From a virus (taxonomy: Duplodnaviria; Heunggongvirae; Uroviricota; Caudoviricetes): a DNA stretch of 10,302 nt. This document shows, piece by piece, positions 1,379 through 10,302 of the stretch (positions are counted from its first letter, which is position 1; every line of letters starts with the position of its first letter). Where the stretch lies: the IMG/VR virus record IMGVR_UViG_2718217859_000003; one strand, written 5' to 3'. Made by a program: the position numbers and the translations under genes. Under the pieces are notes generated by a model. The model saw only the letters and a program-made list of their open reading frames with translations, searched no databases and was not told where the DNA came from.

Positions 1379-3268
1379 TCATAGTGAATCGGTACCGCCT
1401 GATTTGACCATACCGCGATAATCCAGAGCGGCCACACCAGCATCAATACGGACTTTCCAGGCCACACCGTCAACGATGAAACCTTCCTGCTGTTCAAGGT
1501 AAGGCTCGTCATTGCCATCAAGATAAGCCACCTCGATTGTGTCCGTTCCCTGTGCGGAAAGCATGTACCATTGTTTTTCGCTGATATCATCAAGGCGGGG
1601 ATCGACGATAATATCCAGTAGTTTGTGATACGGGTTAAAGATCCCGCTGTTTTTATCTGCCCCGAAAGGTGCGGTTGAGTTAATCATCTGCAACGCGCGA
1701 TCTTCCAGTGCTGCCGGAACTAAAAGGAATTTAGGCGCAATATTCAGCACTTCGCCATTTTTGTCCTTCTGTGTGCGCATCAGGTGACGTGCTGCACTAA
1801 GTCCCGGTGTTGTCAGTCCTGCTTCAATCAGGTTGCTGTGTTTTTTGTCAAACAGCGCTATTCCATCAGAAAGTTTTACGTTGCCTGTAAGCACCAGATT
1901 AACCAGATTTCCCACCGTTCTTGATGCTGCACGGCCCATAGCCATTGGCACCGTTGATAACTGATCAAGGTCATCATTGATTATCGCCTGGCGGGTAATG
2001 CTGAAAATATTCCCGTAAGTAGCCAGCGCGATGGGTTCACCGCGATCGCTGGTGGTGATGTATTTATATTCTGCCCCTTCCGGCACTTTGTTTAACGTAG
2101 AGAAACCATTCAGACCAACGCGGCGGGCTTCACGAAAGTTTGAAAGGGAACCTTTTTTCGTCCACTGGCGGAATGTTTCGCCGCTGTGCTCCCAGCCTGC
2201 AAGCACTGATTTTTCAGCACCACCAGCAAGGATATCGGTAAAATCGCTGCTGCTGTGGTTGAATGCCGCGTTTACTATCTGCGAGCGTGTTCCGTAGCTG
2301 CCCGTGCTTATACCACGATGGGTTAATGATGCCTGTGCCATATCGAAAAGGCTCATCATGGCGTAAGGATTACCGCGTTCGGCCCGTTCGTGACCAAGAC
2401 GCGCATTAAGCCCCTGGCGCATTGCATCGCCGGTTATGTTGCCGTTATCCGTGTACGCGTAGTAAAGATTTGCGGGGGTGGTTTTATTTGTTGGCGTTGA
2501 TTCTTTACCCATAGCGAGTAAAAGGCGTTCGCGTGCATTCTCAACGCTACATTCTGAATCAGCAAGACAACTTATAGCCAGGTCGTTATATCTTCCGTTG
2601 AACGTGCCAAACAATTCACGGATGCCGTTAAGTCGTTCCTGTTCGCCACTGCCAGTTTTCTGGCTGATCATGCTTTTAATTTTTTCCGGCATATTTGAAA
2701 AATCTCCGATTCGTTTTGATTCAATTCGGGCCATTGCTGTAATCGCGGGTATAACCTCATCTGCGAAGCCGTTAGCCTTACACTCATTGCCATCCATCCA
2801 GGTTTCCGCCTCCATCATGGCGGTGATTTCCTGTTTGCTCCTGCCCGTTCTTCCGGCGTAGGTTTCAGCCATCGTGTCGCCCAGCTTGTCCATCAGGTCA
2901 GCAAAGCGGCGAACGTCGCCCGACACTCCGGCAGTAACACCACGGGGGGCATGTATCATCATCATTGCGTTTTCAGGCATAACGATGTGATCGCCACACA
3001 TGGCAATAAACGAGGCCATAGAAGCCGCCATGCCTTCAATGTGTACAATTTTCTTTGCCGGATGATTTTTCAGGGCGTTATAGATAGCCAGCCCTTCAAA
3101 GATGTCGCCACCAGGTGAATGGATGCGAAGATGGATTTCAGACGCATTACCACACGCGTTGATCTCGTCAGTAAGTGCCGATGCTTTTACACCGTACCCG
3201 CCGATCTCGTCATAAATGCGCACATAGACAACATCTGCCATAGCCTTAATGGAAAACCATGTTTTCAT
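1379..3268 (-). CDS. Prohead protease (ClpP-like serine protease) fused to an HK97-fold major capsid protein, single 629-aa polypeptide
   Basis: Strong SD (AGGAG, 8 nt upstream of the ATG at 3268). N-terminal third carries ClpP-type motifs: IHSPGGDIFEGLAIYNAL, GMAASMASF (Ser) and MMMIHAP (His). The C-terminal segment FSITRQAIINDDLDQLS resembles the HK97 gp5 stretch ASRQVMDDAPMLQS as I recall it. Confidence 0.8.
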   Translation of the reverse strand: MKTWFSIKAMADVVYVRIYDEIGGYGVKASALTDEINACGNASEIHLRIHSPGGDIFEGLAIYNALKNHPAKKIVHIEGMAASMASFIAMCGDHIVMPENAMMMIHAPRGVTAGVSGDVRRFADLMDKLGDTMAETYAGRTGRSKQEITAMMEAETWMDGNECKANGFADEVIPAITAMARIESKRIGDFSNMPEKIKSMISQKTGSGEQERLNGIRELFGTFNGRYNDLAISCLADSECSVENARERLLLAMGKESTPTNKTTPANLYYAYTDNGNITGDAMRQGLNARLGHERAERGNPYAMMSLFDMAQASLTHRGISTGSYGTRSQIVNAAFNHSSSDFTDILAGGAEKSVLAGWEHSGETFRQWTKKGSLSNFREARRVGLNGFSTLNKVPEGAEYKYITTSDRGEPIALATYGNIFSITRQAIINDDLDQLSTVPMAMGRAASRTVGNLVNLVLTGNVKLSDGIALFDKKHSNLIEAGLTTPGLSAARHLMRTQKDKNGEVLNIAPKFLLVPAALEDRALQMINSTAPFGADKNSGIFNPYHKLLDIIVDPRLDDISEKQWYMLSAQGTDTIEVAYLDGNDEPYLEQQEGFIVDGVAWKVRIDAGVAALDYRGMVKSGGTDSL

Positions 3269-6813: not shown

Positions 6814-7242
6814 TTAAAACAGCTTCGTCACGAAATCAGCATAGTTAGCGGCAATATCAAGAATATTTAGCCCTGTATCTCTGTGCTCATCAGTGCAAAG
6901 AAAGAAAAAAGCCACCCGCATAATTTCAGATATTGACGAAAGCGCATCAGCCGCATCATCAGGAACGCCGGAAAATTCCTGTTTCAGGGCATTAAAACGA
7001 TCATCACGCATAACCCCCCCATTTTCACAATCAGCAATCAGGATGGCTTTAGCCTCATTCAGTGCCATATCAGCGGTAAGCTGTGCGTAGGCCAGCGAAT
7101 GGGGGATTATTGCCCCTGTATATTCCGGCTCTCTGGTAATGTGTTTTTCTGCGGTTGCTGCCGTGCATGAAATATCAATCAGCGCATCCATCAGCGTTTT
7201 GATGGCTTCGGCGGCTGCGTCCGGACGGGGGTTATTGCACAT
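6814..7242 (-). CDS. Hypothetical protein, 142 aa
   Basis: ATG at 7242 with a strong AGGAGG SD 6 nt upstream; overlaps the end of the upstream 68-aa ORF by 11 nt. Confidence 0.6.
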   Translation of the reverse strand: MCNNPRPDAAAEAIKTLMDALIDISCTAATAEKHITREPEYTGAIIPHSLAYAQLTADMALNEAKAILIADCENGGVMRDDRFNALKQEFSGVPDDAADALSSISEIMRVAFFFLCTDEHRDTGLNILDIAANYADFVTKLF

Positions 7243-7438
7243 GGCGCACCTCCTGACGAATACGGGCGGCGAATACCATCACGCAGCCAGCCGGGGATTG
7301 CTGGCGGGCTTCCTGTTCGCTGGTGGCCTCGATGGTAATCACGCGCGGTTGTGCCGTGCTCAGGGCGATAAAACGCCAGATGTATTTATTCAGGTTGTGC
7401 GAATCCCGCCCTTGCGGGTGTGTGGTATGATTTCTCAT
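7232..7438 (-). CDS. Hypothetical protein, 68 aa, first gene of the leftward replication operon
   Basis: This is the C-terminal part of the 367-aa track ORF, starting at its first plausible ATG (7438), which has a GAGG SD. The rest of that long ORF crosses the control region and is rejected. Confidence 0.45.
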   Translation of the reverse strand: MRNHTTHPQGRDSHNLNKYIWRFIALSTAQPRVITIEATSEQEARQQSPAGCVMVFAARIRQEVRHVQ

Positions 7439-7522
7439 AGCTGCCTCGATACTCTTTCTATCGTTGGTGGTTAGACGCCCTGCATGTGTGCCACCACTGC
7501 GGGGCGTTGCGTTTTTTGATGC

Positions 7523-7579
7523 ACACGTGTTAAGGTGTACACCTACAAAGCAAAAACATAACGCCATAGGTGTACACAT
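7523..7579. promoter_or_regulatory. Divergent control region with palindromic operators
   Basis: ACACGTGT at 7523-7530; perfect 12-bp palindrome AGGTGTACACCT at 7533-7544; near-copy AGGTGTACACAT at 7568-7579 overlapping the SD and start of the RHH gene. Confidence 0.55.
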
Positions 7580-7772
7580 GTCAACAGTTATTAAGCGCGA
7601 TAAAAAACAAAAAGGCACAGGAAAGACCCCACCGTTCCATATGCGTATAGTTCCTGAATTGAAGGAGCAGTTTGATAACGAAGCCAGTAACGATGGAGTA
7701 AGTCTTGCCAACTGGCTTAAAGAGTTGGGGCGCGCCGAACTAAAGCGACGCGGCATTGAACCTAAAGGCTGA
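7578..7772 (+). CDS. Ribbon-helix-helix (Arc/CopG-like) DNA-binding protein, 64 aa
   Basis: ATG at 7578 with an AGGTG SD. The segment FHMRIVPELKEQFDNEAS...SLANWLKELGRAEL fits a strand-helix-helix pattern. The track's longer version starts at a TTG inside the control region and is unlikely. Confidence 0.55.
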   Translation: MSTVIKRDKKQKGTGKTPPFHMRIVPELKEQFDNEASNDGVSLANWLKELGRAELKRRGIEPKG

Positions 7773-7775
7773 TGT

Positions 7776-7895
7776 ATGACCGATAACAAACTTTCTCTAA
7801 CAGAGAATAAACCATCAGGCTTCTTACCAAGAAAAATCCTTGATGAGATCAAACGCCGCCAGCGTAAAAAATCCAAAGGAGCAGACACGGAATAG
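7776..7895 (+). CDS. Micro-ORF, 39 aa, basic C-terminus (not in the ORF track)
   Basis: Translated by hand as MTDNKLSLTENKPSGFLPRKILDEIKRRQRKKSKGADTE. The ATG is 3 nt after the RHH stop, with a weak AAGG SD. Confidence 0.3.
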   Translation: MTDNKLSLTENKPSGFLPRKILDEIKRRQRKKSKGADTE

Positions 7896-7898
7896 CTT

Positions 7899-8063
7899 AT
7901 GCAACAAATACCATACTGGCTTGGCTCTCTGTTTGTATTTGCATTTCTCATGAAATATTGCATTAGCAATGAACTTGTCGGTAATGAAAGTGCATGCGCG
8001 AGCGCTGAAAAAAATATTCCACTTCTCGTATATGAAAACGAAAGCCCTGTGAACCGCAATTGA
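7899..8063 (+). CDS. Micro-ORF, 54 aa, with hydrophobic N-terminal segment (not in the ORF track)
   Basis: Translated by hand as MQQIPYWLGSLFVFAFLMKYCISNELVGNESACASAEKNIPLLVYENESPVNRN. The ATG is 3 nt after the 39-aa stop; the region is AT-rich. Confidence 0.3.
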   Translation: MQQIPYWLGSLFVFAFLMKYCISNELVGNESACASAEKNIPLLVYENESPVNRN

Positions 8064-8159
8064 GCGAAATTTAATGAATTCACTCTTTGCCCACCAGCCG
8101 CAAATGTGGCATTGTTGGCGATGCTCATGCGTTGGGGATAACGTGTAGCTTGTGTCGAA

Positions 8160-8188
8160 GGGCCATCGTGACAGGTGGCCTTTTCTTT
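8160..8188 (+). terminator. Candidate rho-independent terminator for the rightward micro-operon
   Basis: GGGCCA, a 10-nt loop, then TGGCCT (one GU pair), followed by TTTTCTTT. Confidence 0.4.
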
Positions 8189-8226
8189 ACCTGTTATCTG
8201 GCAATTGTGGCGCTTCGTCACACGGT

Positions 8227-8235
8227 TGATATAAT
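8227..8235 (+). promoter_or_regulatory. Candidate extended -10 promoter (TGaTATAAT)
   Basis: Perfect TATAAT at 8230-8235 with TG at 8227-8228; a weak -35-like TTGTGG at 8205-8210. Oriented toward the 3' end of alpA. Confidence 0.3.
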
Positions 8236-8284
8236 TCCCCTGCACTGATCCATTTTTTTCGCAGCAGGTTAATTGTTCGCAAGG

Positions 8285-8309
8285 GCGCTCCGGCAACGGG
8301 GCGCTTTTT
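8285..8309 (+). terminator. Rho-independent terminator with GNRA tetraloop
   Basis: GCGCTCCG-GCAA-CGGGGCGC (8-bp stem including one GU pair) followed by TTTTT. Strand-specific: there is no U-run on the minus strand. Confidence 0.6.
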
Positions 8310-8339
8310 GTTATGTTCATCACGTTACGCCTCACACCA

Positions 8340-8546
8340 TTACGCAGCCGTTCCGCGCGCTTCTTCCTCGCGCTCTTTCAGCCAGGCCAGCACTTCATCT
8401 TCATACCAGCCAACACGACGCAGACCGATTTTGAAGCCTTTCGGAAATTTTCCGGCGTTGATCATGTCCTGTAGCGAACTGTCTGCCTTGATGCGCAGAA
8501 TATTTTTTACTTCCTGACGGGTAAGAATTTTTCTGATTGTTTCCAC
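8340..8546 (-). CDS. alpA: AlpA-family phage transcriptional regulator / excisionase-like HTH protein
   Basis: 68 aa, GTG start with AGGT SD. The pattern FPKGFKIGLRRVGWYEDEVLAWL matches the AlpA core I recall. Small regulator near the integrase, as in P4-like elements and Gram-negative PICIs. Confidence 0.8.
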   Translation of the reverse strand: METIRKILTRQEVKNILRIKADSSLQDMINAGKFPKGFKIGLRRVGWYEDEVLAWLKEREEEARGTAA

Positions 8547-8681: not shown

Positions 8682-8710
8682 AAAAAAATAGCGACCGCAA
8701 GGGGCCGCTA
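8682..8710 (-). terminator. Candidate rho-independent terminator after the 80-aa gene
   Basis: On the minus strand: TAGCGGCC, loop, GGTCGCTA (one mismatch) followed by T7, a few nt after the stop at 8717. Confidence 0.45.
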
Positions 8711-8716
8711 TTGTGA

Positions 8717-9060: not shown

Positions 9061-10302
9061 TTACACGGCACGGATACCCCTTTTACCACTGGCTATGGTC
9101 ACTCCGGTTGCTGCGGCCTCTACAAATTCCCCCCACCAGCGCATAAGCACCACGCGCTTTTCCAGGTAGTTACTTCGGTTATATGCTCGCCTTACCTCGT
9201 TCGTGTCCACGTGTGCGAGTGCGGCCTCGATTACGTCCGGCTCGAATCCTTCCTCGTTCGCTGCTGTGCTGAATATGGCGCGTAATCCATGAGACACCAG
9301 CACGCCAGCGAATCCCATTCGCCGCAATGCTGCGTTGGCGGTCTGGCTGTTCATAGGCTGCCGTGGGTCTTTCAGGCTAGGGAAAACGTGCTCGCGGTGG
9401 TGGCTGATTGGCTTCATGGCCTCCAGTACCGCCATAGCCTGACTACAAAGCGGGATAACGTGATCACGCCGCATCTTCATGCGTCCGGCGGGGATCGTCC
9501 ATTGTTGCGCGTCCATGTCGATTTCTTCCCAGCGTGCTGACGATGCTTCAACCGGACGGGTTACAGTCAGTAGCTGCCATTCAATCAGTAATCTGGTCTG
9601 CCGTTCTGTTGCTGATACGGATAAAGCCTGCATAAGCTCCGGCAACTGTTCGGGGCGGATTGTTGGCATATGTTTTTTTACAGGGGAGGGGAACGCCTTA
9701 CGCACATTCATAGCCGGATTGGCATCAATCAGCCCACTGTTGGCGGCGTAATCCATTACCTCATTAACGCGCTGTAAAACCCGCTTGAGTGTTTCCAGGT
9801 TGCCGCGCTCCTTGATGGGTGTAAGCACCTCAACGAACCTTCGGGCAGTGAGGGTATCTATTGGCGTGTTGCCGATGAACGGGAATACATATTTATCCAG
9901 CGAACGCCAGATGTCTTTAATCGTGTTGGGGGCCAGATTCTGGCTGATTTTCACCTGGTACCATGCCGCCGCCACATTTTCGAACGTGTTCCCTTGTCTT
10001 CGGGCCTCTGCCTCTCGTTTTTTCTTCTCATGGTCCTGCGGGTCAGTTCCGGCACTGATTAACGTCCTGTACTCGCTACGGCGTTTTCTGGCATCAGCCA
10101 GGGAAACATCTTCAAGAGATCCAAAACTCAGCAATATTCTTTTTTTGTCCGATGGTCGGTAGTAGGAAAATCGCCAGAGTTTTGATCCGGACGGTTTTAC
10201 CAGGAGAAAAAGCCCACCGCCGTCCTGTAGGGTGTACTCCTTTTGCGCTGGTCTGGCTGCTTTGATCTGCACTGTGGTTAATGGGGGTGTTTTTCTCGCC
10301 AT
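9061..10302 (-). CDS. int: Tyrosine site-specific integrase, P4-type (phage integrase family)
   Basis: 413 aa; the start codon sits exactly at the window edge. N-terminal arm-binding-like region (GGGLFLLVKPSGSKLWRFSYY), C-terminal catalytic signatures HGLRAIFST and a tyrosine in RRAYNRSNYLEKR. Confidence 0.93.
   Translation of the reverse strand: MARKTPPLTTVQIKAARPAQKEYTLQDGGGLFLLVKPSGSKLWRFSYYRPSDKKRILLSFGSLEDVSLADARKRRSEYRTLISAGTDPQDHEKKKREAEARRQGNTFENVAAAWYQVKISQNLAPNTIKDIWRSLDKYVFPFIGNTPIDTLTARRFVEVLTPIKERGNLETLKRVLQRVNEVMDYAANSGLIDANPAMNVRKAFPSPVKKHMPTIRPEQLPELMQALSVSATERQTRLLIEWQLLTVTRPVEASSARWEEIDMDAQQWTIPAGRMKMRRDHVIPLCSQAMAVLEAMKPISHHREHVFPSLKDPRQPMNSQTANAALRRMGFAGVLVSHGLRAIFSTAANEEGFEPDVIEAALAHVDTNEVRRAYNRSNYLEKRVVLMRWWGEFVEAAATGVTIASGKRGIRAV

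Follow-up and report, generated by a model that had tools for sequence, protein, structure and literature searches.

We analysed a 10,302-nucleotide stretch of DNA (the window), taken from the IMG/VR virus record IMGVR_UViG_2718217859_000003, which proved to be a chromosomal island of E. coli, integrated at a tRNA-Pro gene beside yejM. Between alpA and a short operon on the opposite strand, its sequence is best explained by a self-contained plus-strand gene for a non-coding RNA of about 70 nt, comprising an extended -10 promoter, a predicted start at about position 8242 and a terminator at 8281-8309. This unit would be antisense to the start of the operon that is switched on by AlpA, and it may represent a missing brake on such islands. 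As to its role, we tentatively favour, at somewhat less than an even chance, a constitutive cis-antisense RNA that restrains AlpA-driven expression. A preliminary description, made from the sequence of the window, had proposed an independent small transcription unit at this place, which is very probably correct in view of the conserved -10, the promoter variants found in relatives, the strand-specific terminator and the presence of a further terminator (T1) upstream. The same description had placed the element in the P4 family. Judged by its gene layout, which matches that of AlpA-type islands and not that of P4, it is instead an AlpA-type phage-inducible chromosomal island (PICI) of the EcCICFT073 kind.

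Conserved signals delimit a predicted small RNA gene

The perfect TATAAT with an upstream TG that had been pointed out at 8227-8235 is present, as the element TGATATAAT. By itself TGNTATAAT is not significant, because its single copy in the window compares with an expectation of 0.36 and 60 of 200 shuffled sequences contained at least one. The -35 element is poor (TTGTGG, with a 19-nt spacer), which is why a promoter scan did not list the site, and the promoter of units such as that of the window (class A, below) qualifies solely as one of the extended -10 type. It is the comparative evidence, rather than the single sequence, that lifts the unit above chance. Across 36 distinct class A variants TGATATAA is invariant, and the final T is kept in all but one (35/36). 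The mean number of minor alleles per column is 0.30 in TTGATATAAT, as against 4.6 in the upstream spacer and 3.8 in the transcribed 5' part, with the columns flanking the -10 varying 10-15 times more than the -10 itself. Since the invariant bases at 8228, 8231 and 8234 are third codon (wobble) positions of the sole open minus-strand frame, this constraint is not one of protein coding. The promoter spacer also contains an imperfect palindrome (Table 1), which is perfect in several relatives and is replaced in one sub-class by a different palindrome, TGGTC-ATTTC-GACCA. It could, speculatively, be a putative operator, a reading weakened by the variability of its right half.

The terminator at the 3' end of the unit (T2) is the strongest within the scanned region. 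It had been described as a strong strand-specific terminator with an 8-bp stem, a GCAA loop and five U residues; its strength on the plus strand, its loop and its U-run (TTTTT at 8305-8309) stand, and the stem is longer, with 12 pairs over 8281-8308 that include G·T and A·T pairs and 7 G-C pairs, the 8 bp being the G-C core. In 36/36 variants the hairpin is more stable as plus-strand than as minus-strand RNA (mean -19.0 versus -10.4 kcal/mol). Double changes that compensate each other occur at two positions (C-G to G-C and C-G to A-T), and every single change that preserves pairing produces a U·G pair, equivalent to A·C on the opposite strand. The structural and covariation comparison across homologous islands that the preliminary description had called for therefore bears out the terminator, through these compensatory and U·G changes, and brings out no other consistent structure. 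As the hairpin is weak on the minus strand and is not followed by a U-run there, T2 would not be a good terminator for alpA. On the other side of the promoter, T1 closes the upstream ylcI-like operon. It folds at -17.9 kcal/mol (z = -3.0) as plus-strand RNA and at -9.1 kcal/mol (z = -0.7) as minus-strand RNA, and in relatives it is swapped for a different hairpin (GGCGACC..GGTCGCC, followed by TTTGTTTT). Operon, T1, promoter, about 70 nt and T2 thus follow one another in the order that marks a small gene of its own.

For the predicted RNA of 68 nt, the folding energy is -23.9 kcal/mol (z = -2.7). This RNA consists of a 5' end of 18-27 nt that varies, a single-stranded, U-rich stretch that is conserved (GGUUAAUUGUUC) and the terminator; its 5' 40 nt are unstructured, and the terminator hairpin is the sole structure consistent among classes. 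A small 5' hairpin at 8261-8280, predicted in the window, is absent from other variants and was dropped. The terminator hairpin is preceded by UUAAUUGUUC and the tail reads UUUUUGUU, the arrangement of an Hfq-type RNA. Neither ATG nor GTG occurs on the plus strand in 8242-8309, and the only start-like codon there is a TTG at 8273, whose open reading frame (ORF) crosses the terminator and runs antisense to alpA. The earlier statement that no credible ORF lies within the unit thus holds for the plus strand; it does not for the minus strand, where a long ORF with its own Shine-Dalgarno sequence and ATG crosses the unit. An attenuator or leader was also considered and rejected, because no plus-strand gene lies 3' of the terminator and the downstream partner varies. 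In all likelihood, the unit is transcribed as a discrete RNA.

Relatives were collected by a pattern scan of viral contigs anchored on 8260-8285, which returned 112 loci, and 80 more came from an independent, Icd-anchored search; locus searches based on alpA and on icd sampled close relatives only. The collected loci form several classes, which have only the 3' module (8260-8312) in common, their upstream sequences being unrelated. In class A, with upstream sequence like that of the window, the promoter TGATATAAT ends 24 nt before the 3' module. Class B has an unrelated upstream sequence in which TTCACT-17-TATAAT ends 27 nt short of the module; no other site in 600 bp of locus L008 resembles a promoter. 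In class B2, where the upstream sequence differs again, TTCACA-17-TAAAAT ends 24 nt before the module. Spacers and transcribed 5' parts therefore differ among classes A, B and B2, while hexamers and position are kept. Class C lacks a good promoter, its 3' module directly terminating the plus-strand operon, and in class D the unit is absent and T1 alone terminates that operon; given these two classes, the unit is a frequent but dispensable add-on. Where present, it is kept beside changing neighbours, both downstream (alpA alleles, ant or BRO) and in the operon upstream.

The preliminary description had made its proposal depend on conservation in related elements, which is evident from the 36 class A variants and from complete E. 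coli genomes, 443 of 5426 of which (about 8%) carry the promoter-plus-RNA segment, with as many as 6 copies in one genome. None of those genomes has it annotated as RNA. By blastn, the block 8087-8312 is common to hundreds of complete E. coli genomes, with homology often ending straight after the T-run. Among the species-representative genomes of GTDB, only Escherichia ruysiae carries the unit, in addition to six chance matches. A class A copy is found in EcCICFT073 (L234), so that a candidate negative regulator for Gram-negative PICIs is present in the laboratory prototype. A blastn search of a phage record collection gave no match to the unit, and an Rfam search of the whole window with all families at E<=1 returned only a spurious snoRNA match. 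The Rfam int-alpA motif has no match in the window, and the unit lies on the opposite side of alpA from int. No description of this RNA was found in the literature on PICIs, alpA, small RNAs, Icd-like/YlcI and EcCICFT073. The predicted RNA is thus new in being absent from Rfam, genome annotation and the searchable literature; as a type, cis-antisense RNAs of mobile elements are already known.

A similar arrangement was seen in a second island family (L151 and L236-L238), with the gene order int, DUF6387, alpA, hypothetical, ant, DUF4222 and a long Icd-like gene. Here TATAAT or TAATAT, about 45 nt and a terminator follow one another on the strand opposite alpA (L151 ~2693-2790; L236-L238 ~1500-1600), and the T-run lies directly against a TAATG overlap of the alpA stop and the next start codon. 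This second unit has no evident sequence similarity to the first, and 43 E. coli genomes match L151 at about 76% identity.

The predicted RNA is antisense to the frame that follows alpA

AlpA is the master activator of EcCICFT073 and activates its own promoter; reporters inserted behind the alpA stop or in the ORF that follows (ORF3) are AlpA-dependent, and AlpA-dependent transcription goes past the alpA stop into that ORF (PMC6092414). In the window, alpA lies on the minus strand at 8340-8546, and the unit points at its 3' end, as had been noted. The earlier view that the RNA would become antisense only by reading through into alpA has to be revised, since a minus-strand frame starts 19 nt after the alpA stop and the predicted RNA, wholly complementary to the transcript leaving alpA, already lies inside it. 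The 3' end of the RNA (8309-8312) falls opposite +9 to +12 of the frame, so that pairing would extend from about codon 4.

This geometry was compared between contexts. In those of alpA type, a conserved Shine-Dalgarno sequence and ATG are found 11 nt past the RNA 3' end: GAGG and ATG are kept across alleles and the 9-nt spacer between them varies (CGTAACGTG, TGTAACGCA, CATAACACG, CTTGACACG), while another alpA allele has GGGGGGAGCG-ATG in place of GAGG, spacer and ATG. In islands of ant type, the frame's ATG and the ant stop overlap (ATGTGTAA), and the paired region lies 29 nt further on. Islands without the unit have T1 positioned likewise against a Shine-Dalgarno sequence and ATG, as in L173 (GGGGGAACAT-ATG-ACA-CAT-AAA-ACA-AAG-GCG-ACC).

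The minus-strand frame is itself unusual. Over about 1.1 kb it crosses T2, the RNA, the promoter and T1, then runs antisense to the plus-strand operon and into an Icd-like domain. It contains no stop in 76 of 99 distinct contexts (median span 1161 nt), compared with a mean of 20-21 stops in each of the two other minus-strand frames. Variants differ in length mostly by multiples of 3 (12, 141 and 6 nt, with one exception of 1 nt), and the same long open frame was seen in the independent Icd-anchored sample. NCBI names it 'Icd-like protein' (362 aa here, 280-470 residues elsewhere, 1553 clusters); all clusters with a source name are from Escherichia, and full-length matches go down to 41% identity. 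Only the C-terminal part matches a family, residues 318-361 within about the last 48 (Icd-like domain NF033153, E = 2.4e-18), and the 362-aa product is rich in cysteine (about 3.8%), serine and arginine. Within 8185-8309 there is no third-position excess, with 20, 28 and 18 variable columns at codon positions 1, 2 and 3, and 36 DNA variants of this segment yield 32 different peptides. Moreover, paired changes in the hairpin preserve base pairing and not amino acids, turning SAPLPERP into AAPIRNRL. Taken together, these sequence comparisons indicate a frame that is held open yet is not conserved as a protein. The ratios of nonsynonymous to synonymous polymorphism (pN/pS) on overlapping plus and minus frames, 0.33 versus 0.43 and 0.82 versus 0.58, are not discriminating, because both frames share wobble positions. 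GC skew, examined for C-rich sites at which Rho might load on the minus-strand RNA, showed no clear bias.

Annotation of the region is inconsistent among genomes, being given as a 362-aa 'Icd-like protein', as a pseudogene or as small opposite-strand genes. The pseudogenes called under the unit by the Prokaryotic Genome Annotation Pipeline (PGAP), named 'icd-like', 'BRO-N' or 'hypothetical', have no family matches in that frame and were set aside; they may be read as alignments to long-ORF database entries together with a real ant/BRO remnant in EcCICFT073-type islands. In such islands (L003, L234), an in-frame antirepressor gene remnant was observed between alpA and the RNA unit, with an AntA-like N-terminus (MNTGY..GRGFVRP) fused to a BRO-like part (..MSIISESGFYKLI) and opening the long frame (L234 8767-10053). 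The 'BRO-N domain' pseudogene of PGAP in these islands is probably due to it.

A possible brake on AlpA-driven expression

The features above can be joined into a working scheme. The RNA would be made constitutively in the resting island and would pair with leaky or early AlpA-driven transcripts. Where a start codon is close, pairing could block ribosome loading on the frame; it could also, or instead, create a 68-bp duplex open to cleavage, with transcriptional interference as a possible added effect. By blocked loading or by cleavage, the icd-like, replication and packaging genes further downstream would be uncoupled from alpA until induction by a helper phage raised alpA transcription above the capacity of the RNA. 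That the RNA is produced, pairs in vivo and lowers downstream expression is what we infer from sequence. The scheme is supported by the separation of the unit from the upstream operon by T1, by its modularity, the unit being kept amid different downstream genes and upstream operons, and by the analogous unit of the second island family, which lacks evident similarity to it. It would place a probably constitutive RNA gene next to the first reading frame after alpA, and this plus-strand unit may matter for the engineering of PICIs as delivery vehicles.

Several observations weigh against a brake of this kind. Both the start site and the small RNA are predictions, and the -35 of class A is poor. 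Since classes C and D manage without the promoter, the island design does not require the unit, and conservation of the 3' module could partly reflect recent recombination and not selection. Contexts of the EcCICFT073 and L004 types have the frame's first start codon 92-248 nt ahead of the paired region, at the ant remnant, and in BRO-type contexts there is no good start codon nearby; for these reasons a block on ribosome loading cannot be general. The icd-like gene, finally, has a minus-strand promoter of its own (TTGACA-18-TATGTT, 7584-7555) and its own ribosome-binding site. Two palindromes GGTGTACACC (7534-7543 and 7569-7578), located between the divergent ylcI-like gene and icd, flank this promoter and are probable operators of an island-encoded repressor. 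Because of these elements, the downstream genes may not depend on transcription from alpA, and their control is probably layered.

Among known systems, the unit would work most like lambda OOP and P22 sar. OOP RNA, 77 nt long, lies antisense to the cII 3' end and probably acts by forming an RNA duplex. Like it, the predicted RNA is short, non-coding and part of a temperate element, has a sigma-70 promoter and an intrinsic terminator of its own, and is convergent to a key regulator. OOP, however, overlaps the cII coding region, whereas this RNA ends 31 nt before alpA and covers the 5' coding part of the next frame, and the two have no sequence similarity. P22 sar RNA, of 68-69 nt, is antisense to the arc-ant junction. 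It resembles the predicted RNA in size, in cis-antisense arrangement, in its association with an antirepressor region (related islands carry ant/BRO) and in being directed at a translation start after a small regulator. Sar covers the ant ribosome-binding site, whereas here pairing would lie about 9-12 nt past the ATG, leaving the Shine-Dalgarno sequence and ATG free; again there is no homology.

The likeness to other phage RNAs is looser. The c4 RNA of P1/P7 is also linked to an Icd-like frame, and in both cases an RNA would limit translation of an icd frame, which may be required to sustain downstream transcription, as established for P1 and inferred here; but c4 is cut from its target's own transcript and pairs through two short loops. 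P4 CI had been invoked in the preliminary description as a precedent in the element's own family. It shares with the present case RNA-based control in an E. coli phage satellite, but CI is processed from the left-operon leader and causes premature termination by seqA/seqC pairing, none of which is seen here, and with no similarity to CI or c4 and no Rfam match the analogy to P4 does not amount to kinship. Excludons and convergent-promoter switches (as at coliphage 186 pR/pL) likewise have opposed, overlapping units of which one lowers the other, the present counterpart being the plus-strand operon and RNA set against the alpA-driven operon on the minus strand; they do so through long overlapping untranslated regions, in contrast to a dedicated 70-nt unit between two terminators.

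A more far-reaching, and doubtful, proposal is that Gram-negative PICIs, said to have no repressor, possess an immunity module that has gone unrecognised and of which the RNA forms half. The stop-free antisense territory of about 1 kb would allow ribosomes to escort polymerase to icd and the replication genes, and the RNA would halt this escort at codon 4; where an island lacks the unit, the role of the RNA would fall to the 3' end of the mRNA of the plus-strand operon. If so, downstream expression would depend on a threshold of alpA transcription, in a cis-antisense version of the P1 c4-icd-ant logic. The RNA of one island could also silence co-resident or incoming islands, such cross-immunity being conceivable because the 50-nt 3' module is common to islands that differ elsewhere.

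Alternative explanations

The unit might act at the level of DNA, constitutive convergent transcription from 8242 hindering the polymerase that comes from alpA (by collision or promoter occupancy), with T2 shielding alpA against transcription antisense to it and the RNA a by-product. The geometry is indeed convergent, as it is between the upstream plus-strand operon and the alpA transcript, a strong -10 sits only about 100 nt from the alpA stop, and the 5' part of the RNA is wholly different in classes A, B and B2, as if its sequence were unimportant. A 70-nt unit, however, offers a very short zone of interference, the 3' module is conserved among classes at 8260-8280 beyond what a terminator needs, and the T-run recurs against a minus-strand start codon in three unrelated sequence families, a recurrence suggesting that it is a relationship between two RNAs, or between RNA and ribosome, that matters. 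We therefore regard an effect exerted through DNA as unlikely. What the conserved 3' module would also suit is a trans-acting small RNA of Hfq type, pairing through GGUUAAUUGUUC or through its class-specific 5' end with host or helper-phage mRNAs, and so perhaps hampering the helper or adjusting the physiology of the host. The unstructured 5' region, the U-rich stretch before the terminator hairpin and the U tail are the usual Hfq-binding layout, the 3' module is shared across classes and there are several copies per genome. Within the island, however, three classes gave no complementarity of >=12 nt to other island transcripts; the longest match outside the cis target was 11 nt, in the chance range (about one 10-mer expected), and a duplex-folding scan returned only long interrupted duplexes. 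Nor did blastn reveal similarity to any record of the phage collection. The seed of a trans-acting RNA is usually its best conserved part, whereas the 5' end is the most variable part of this one. Action in trans is accordingly rather improbable in our view.

It seems improbable that no separate gene exists at all, in which case T2 would serve the plus-strand operon and alpA as a back-up or bidirectional terminator, and the TATAAT would have arisen by chance or be without function. Such a view can draw on the non-significance of TGNTATAAT in the window and on classes C and D, where the 3' module ends the operon without a good promoter or T1 alone suffices. It has to contend with three different upstream sequences that each place a near-consensus promoter at the same distance, with the -10 as an island of conservation, and with a hairpin that is weak as minus-strand RNA and has no U-run there. 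The conservation might, conversely, stem from a real minus-strand protein, the 362-aa 'Icd-like protein', the plus-strand signals being side effects of its codons. The frame is open in 76/99 contexts behind a conserved Shine-Dalgarno sequence and ATG, its length differences are mostly multiples of 3 and gene callers annotate it in many genomes; but the lack of third-position excess in 8185-8309, the 32 peptides from 36 DNA variants, hairpin changes that keep pairing and not amino acids, invariant -10 bases at wobble positions, a family match confined to the C-terminal 48 residues and a cysteine content of about 3.8% make this very unlikely. Homology to the immunity RNAs P4 CI or P1/P7 c4 is barely credible. 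It could be suspected from the linkage to an Icd-like gene (NF033153) and, in relatives, to ant or BRO, yet no Rfam covariance model matches at E<=1, the unit has its own promoter on the strand opposite icd instead of being processed from the same strand upstream of its target, and neither a two-loop structure nor short target boxes occur in the element. Of these readings, we continue to prefer the cis-antisense brake.

The island and its gene neighbourhood

Features of the region are listed in Table 1. On the minus strand the genes follow in the order integrase, small ORF, AlpA-family regulator, Icd-like gene, several small genes, primase and protease/capsid fusion. The order in EcCICFT073 is the same: int, alpA, a plus-strand ylcI-like gene, icd-like, DUF4222, primase and capsid genes. 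The role of alpA as master activator is taken from EcCICFT073, for which it was described (PMC6092414).

Table 1. Positions of the features discussed (window coordinates unless an accession is given)
Feature	Position	Strand	Remarks
Stop-free frame	7232-8320	minus	362 codons from ATG; ends in Icd-like domain
Upstream ylcI-like operon	7578-8063	plus	ORFs of 64, 39 and 54 aa; ended by T1
Terminator T1	8157-8188	plus	11-bp stem, then UUUUCUUU; ends upstream ylcI-like operon; from folding
Imperfect palindrome	8207-8223		TGTGGCG-CTT-CGTCACA in promoter spacer; candidate operator
Extended -10 promoter element	8227-8235	plus	TGATATAAT; sole copy in window; conserved in class A variants
Predicted non-coding RNA	8242-8312	plus	~68-71 nt; predicted start G8242, 7 nt past -10; 3' end in U-run
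Conserved single-stranded stretch	8260-8280	plus	CGCAGCAGGTTAATTGTTCGC; first half of shared 3' module; common to classes A, B, B2 and C
Intrinsic terminator T2	8281-8309	plus	Hairpin 8281-8308, GCAA loop, U-run 8305-8309; from terminator scan
Shine-Dalgarno and start codon	8318-8333	minus	GAGG (8333-8330) and ATG (8320-8318); opens ORF after alpA
alpA	8340-8546	minus	PICI master activator gene; Pfam Phage_AlpA, E = 4.5e-8; annotated helix-turn-helix (HTH) regulator
Integrase	9061-10302	minus	
Predicted RNA in CFT073	NC_004431.1 complement 1380081..1380014		

The first, 64-aa protein of the plus-strand operon is probably a ribbon-helix-helix protein; it has sub-threshold family matches only (HicB, TraJ) and is named hypothetical by PGAP, while counterparts of the operon genes in related islands are annotated YlcI/YnfO. 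The three plus-strand ORFs share one frame, with a stop and one codon between each, and this frame stays open until the TAA at 8139-8141. The 54-aa product has a hydrophobic N-terminus, and PGAP annotates only the first of the three. Between alpA and the small ORF after int there is a strong minus-strand terminator (8687-8712, AATAGCGGCCCCTTGCGGTCGCTATT followed by TTTTT), suggesting separate transcription of alpA and int. The island encodes a fusion of a ClpP-like prohead protease with the major capsid protein, and a PerC-family regulator (window 1379-3268; L001 1868-2170), in which respect it resembles capsid-encoding rather than classical PICIs.

The window also contains nine Chi sites (GCTGGTGG) in 10.3 kb, on both strands (at 747, 2048, 2220, 4762, 6319, 7319, 8091, 8756 and 9133), where shuffled sequences lead one to expect 0.34. 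With an average of about one Chi per 4.5 kb in the E. coli genome, the excess in the island would be roughly four-fold. A 38-nt piece at 8087-8125 (GCCCACCAGCCGCAAATGTGGCATTGTTGGCGATGCTCA), which includes a Chi complement, is found by itself in many E. coli genomes, at 97% identity, and always lies just 3' of the last plus-strand ORF. In some islands, two copies of CCCACCAGC are found about 33 nt apart.

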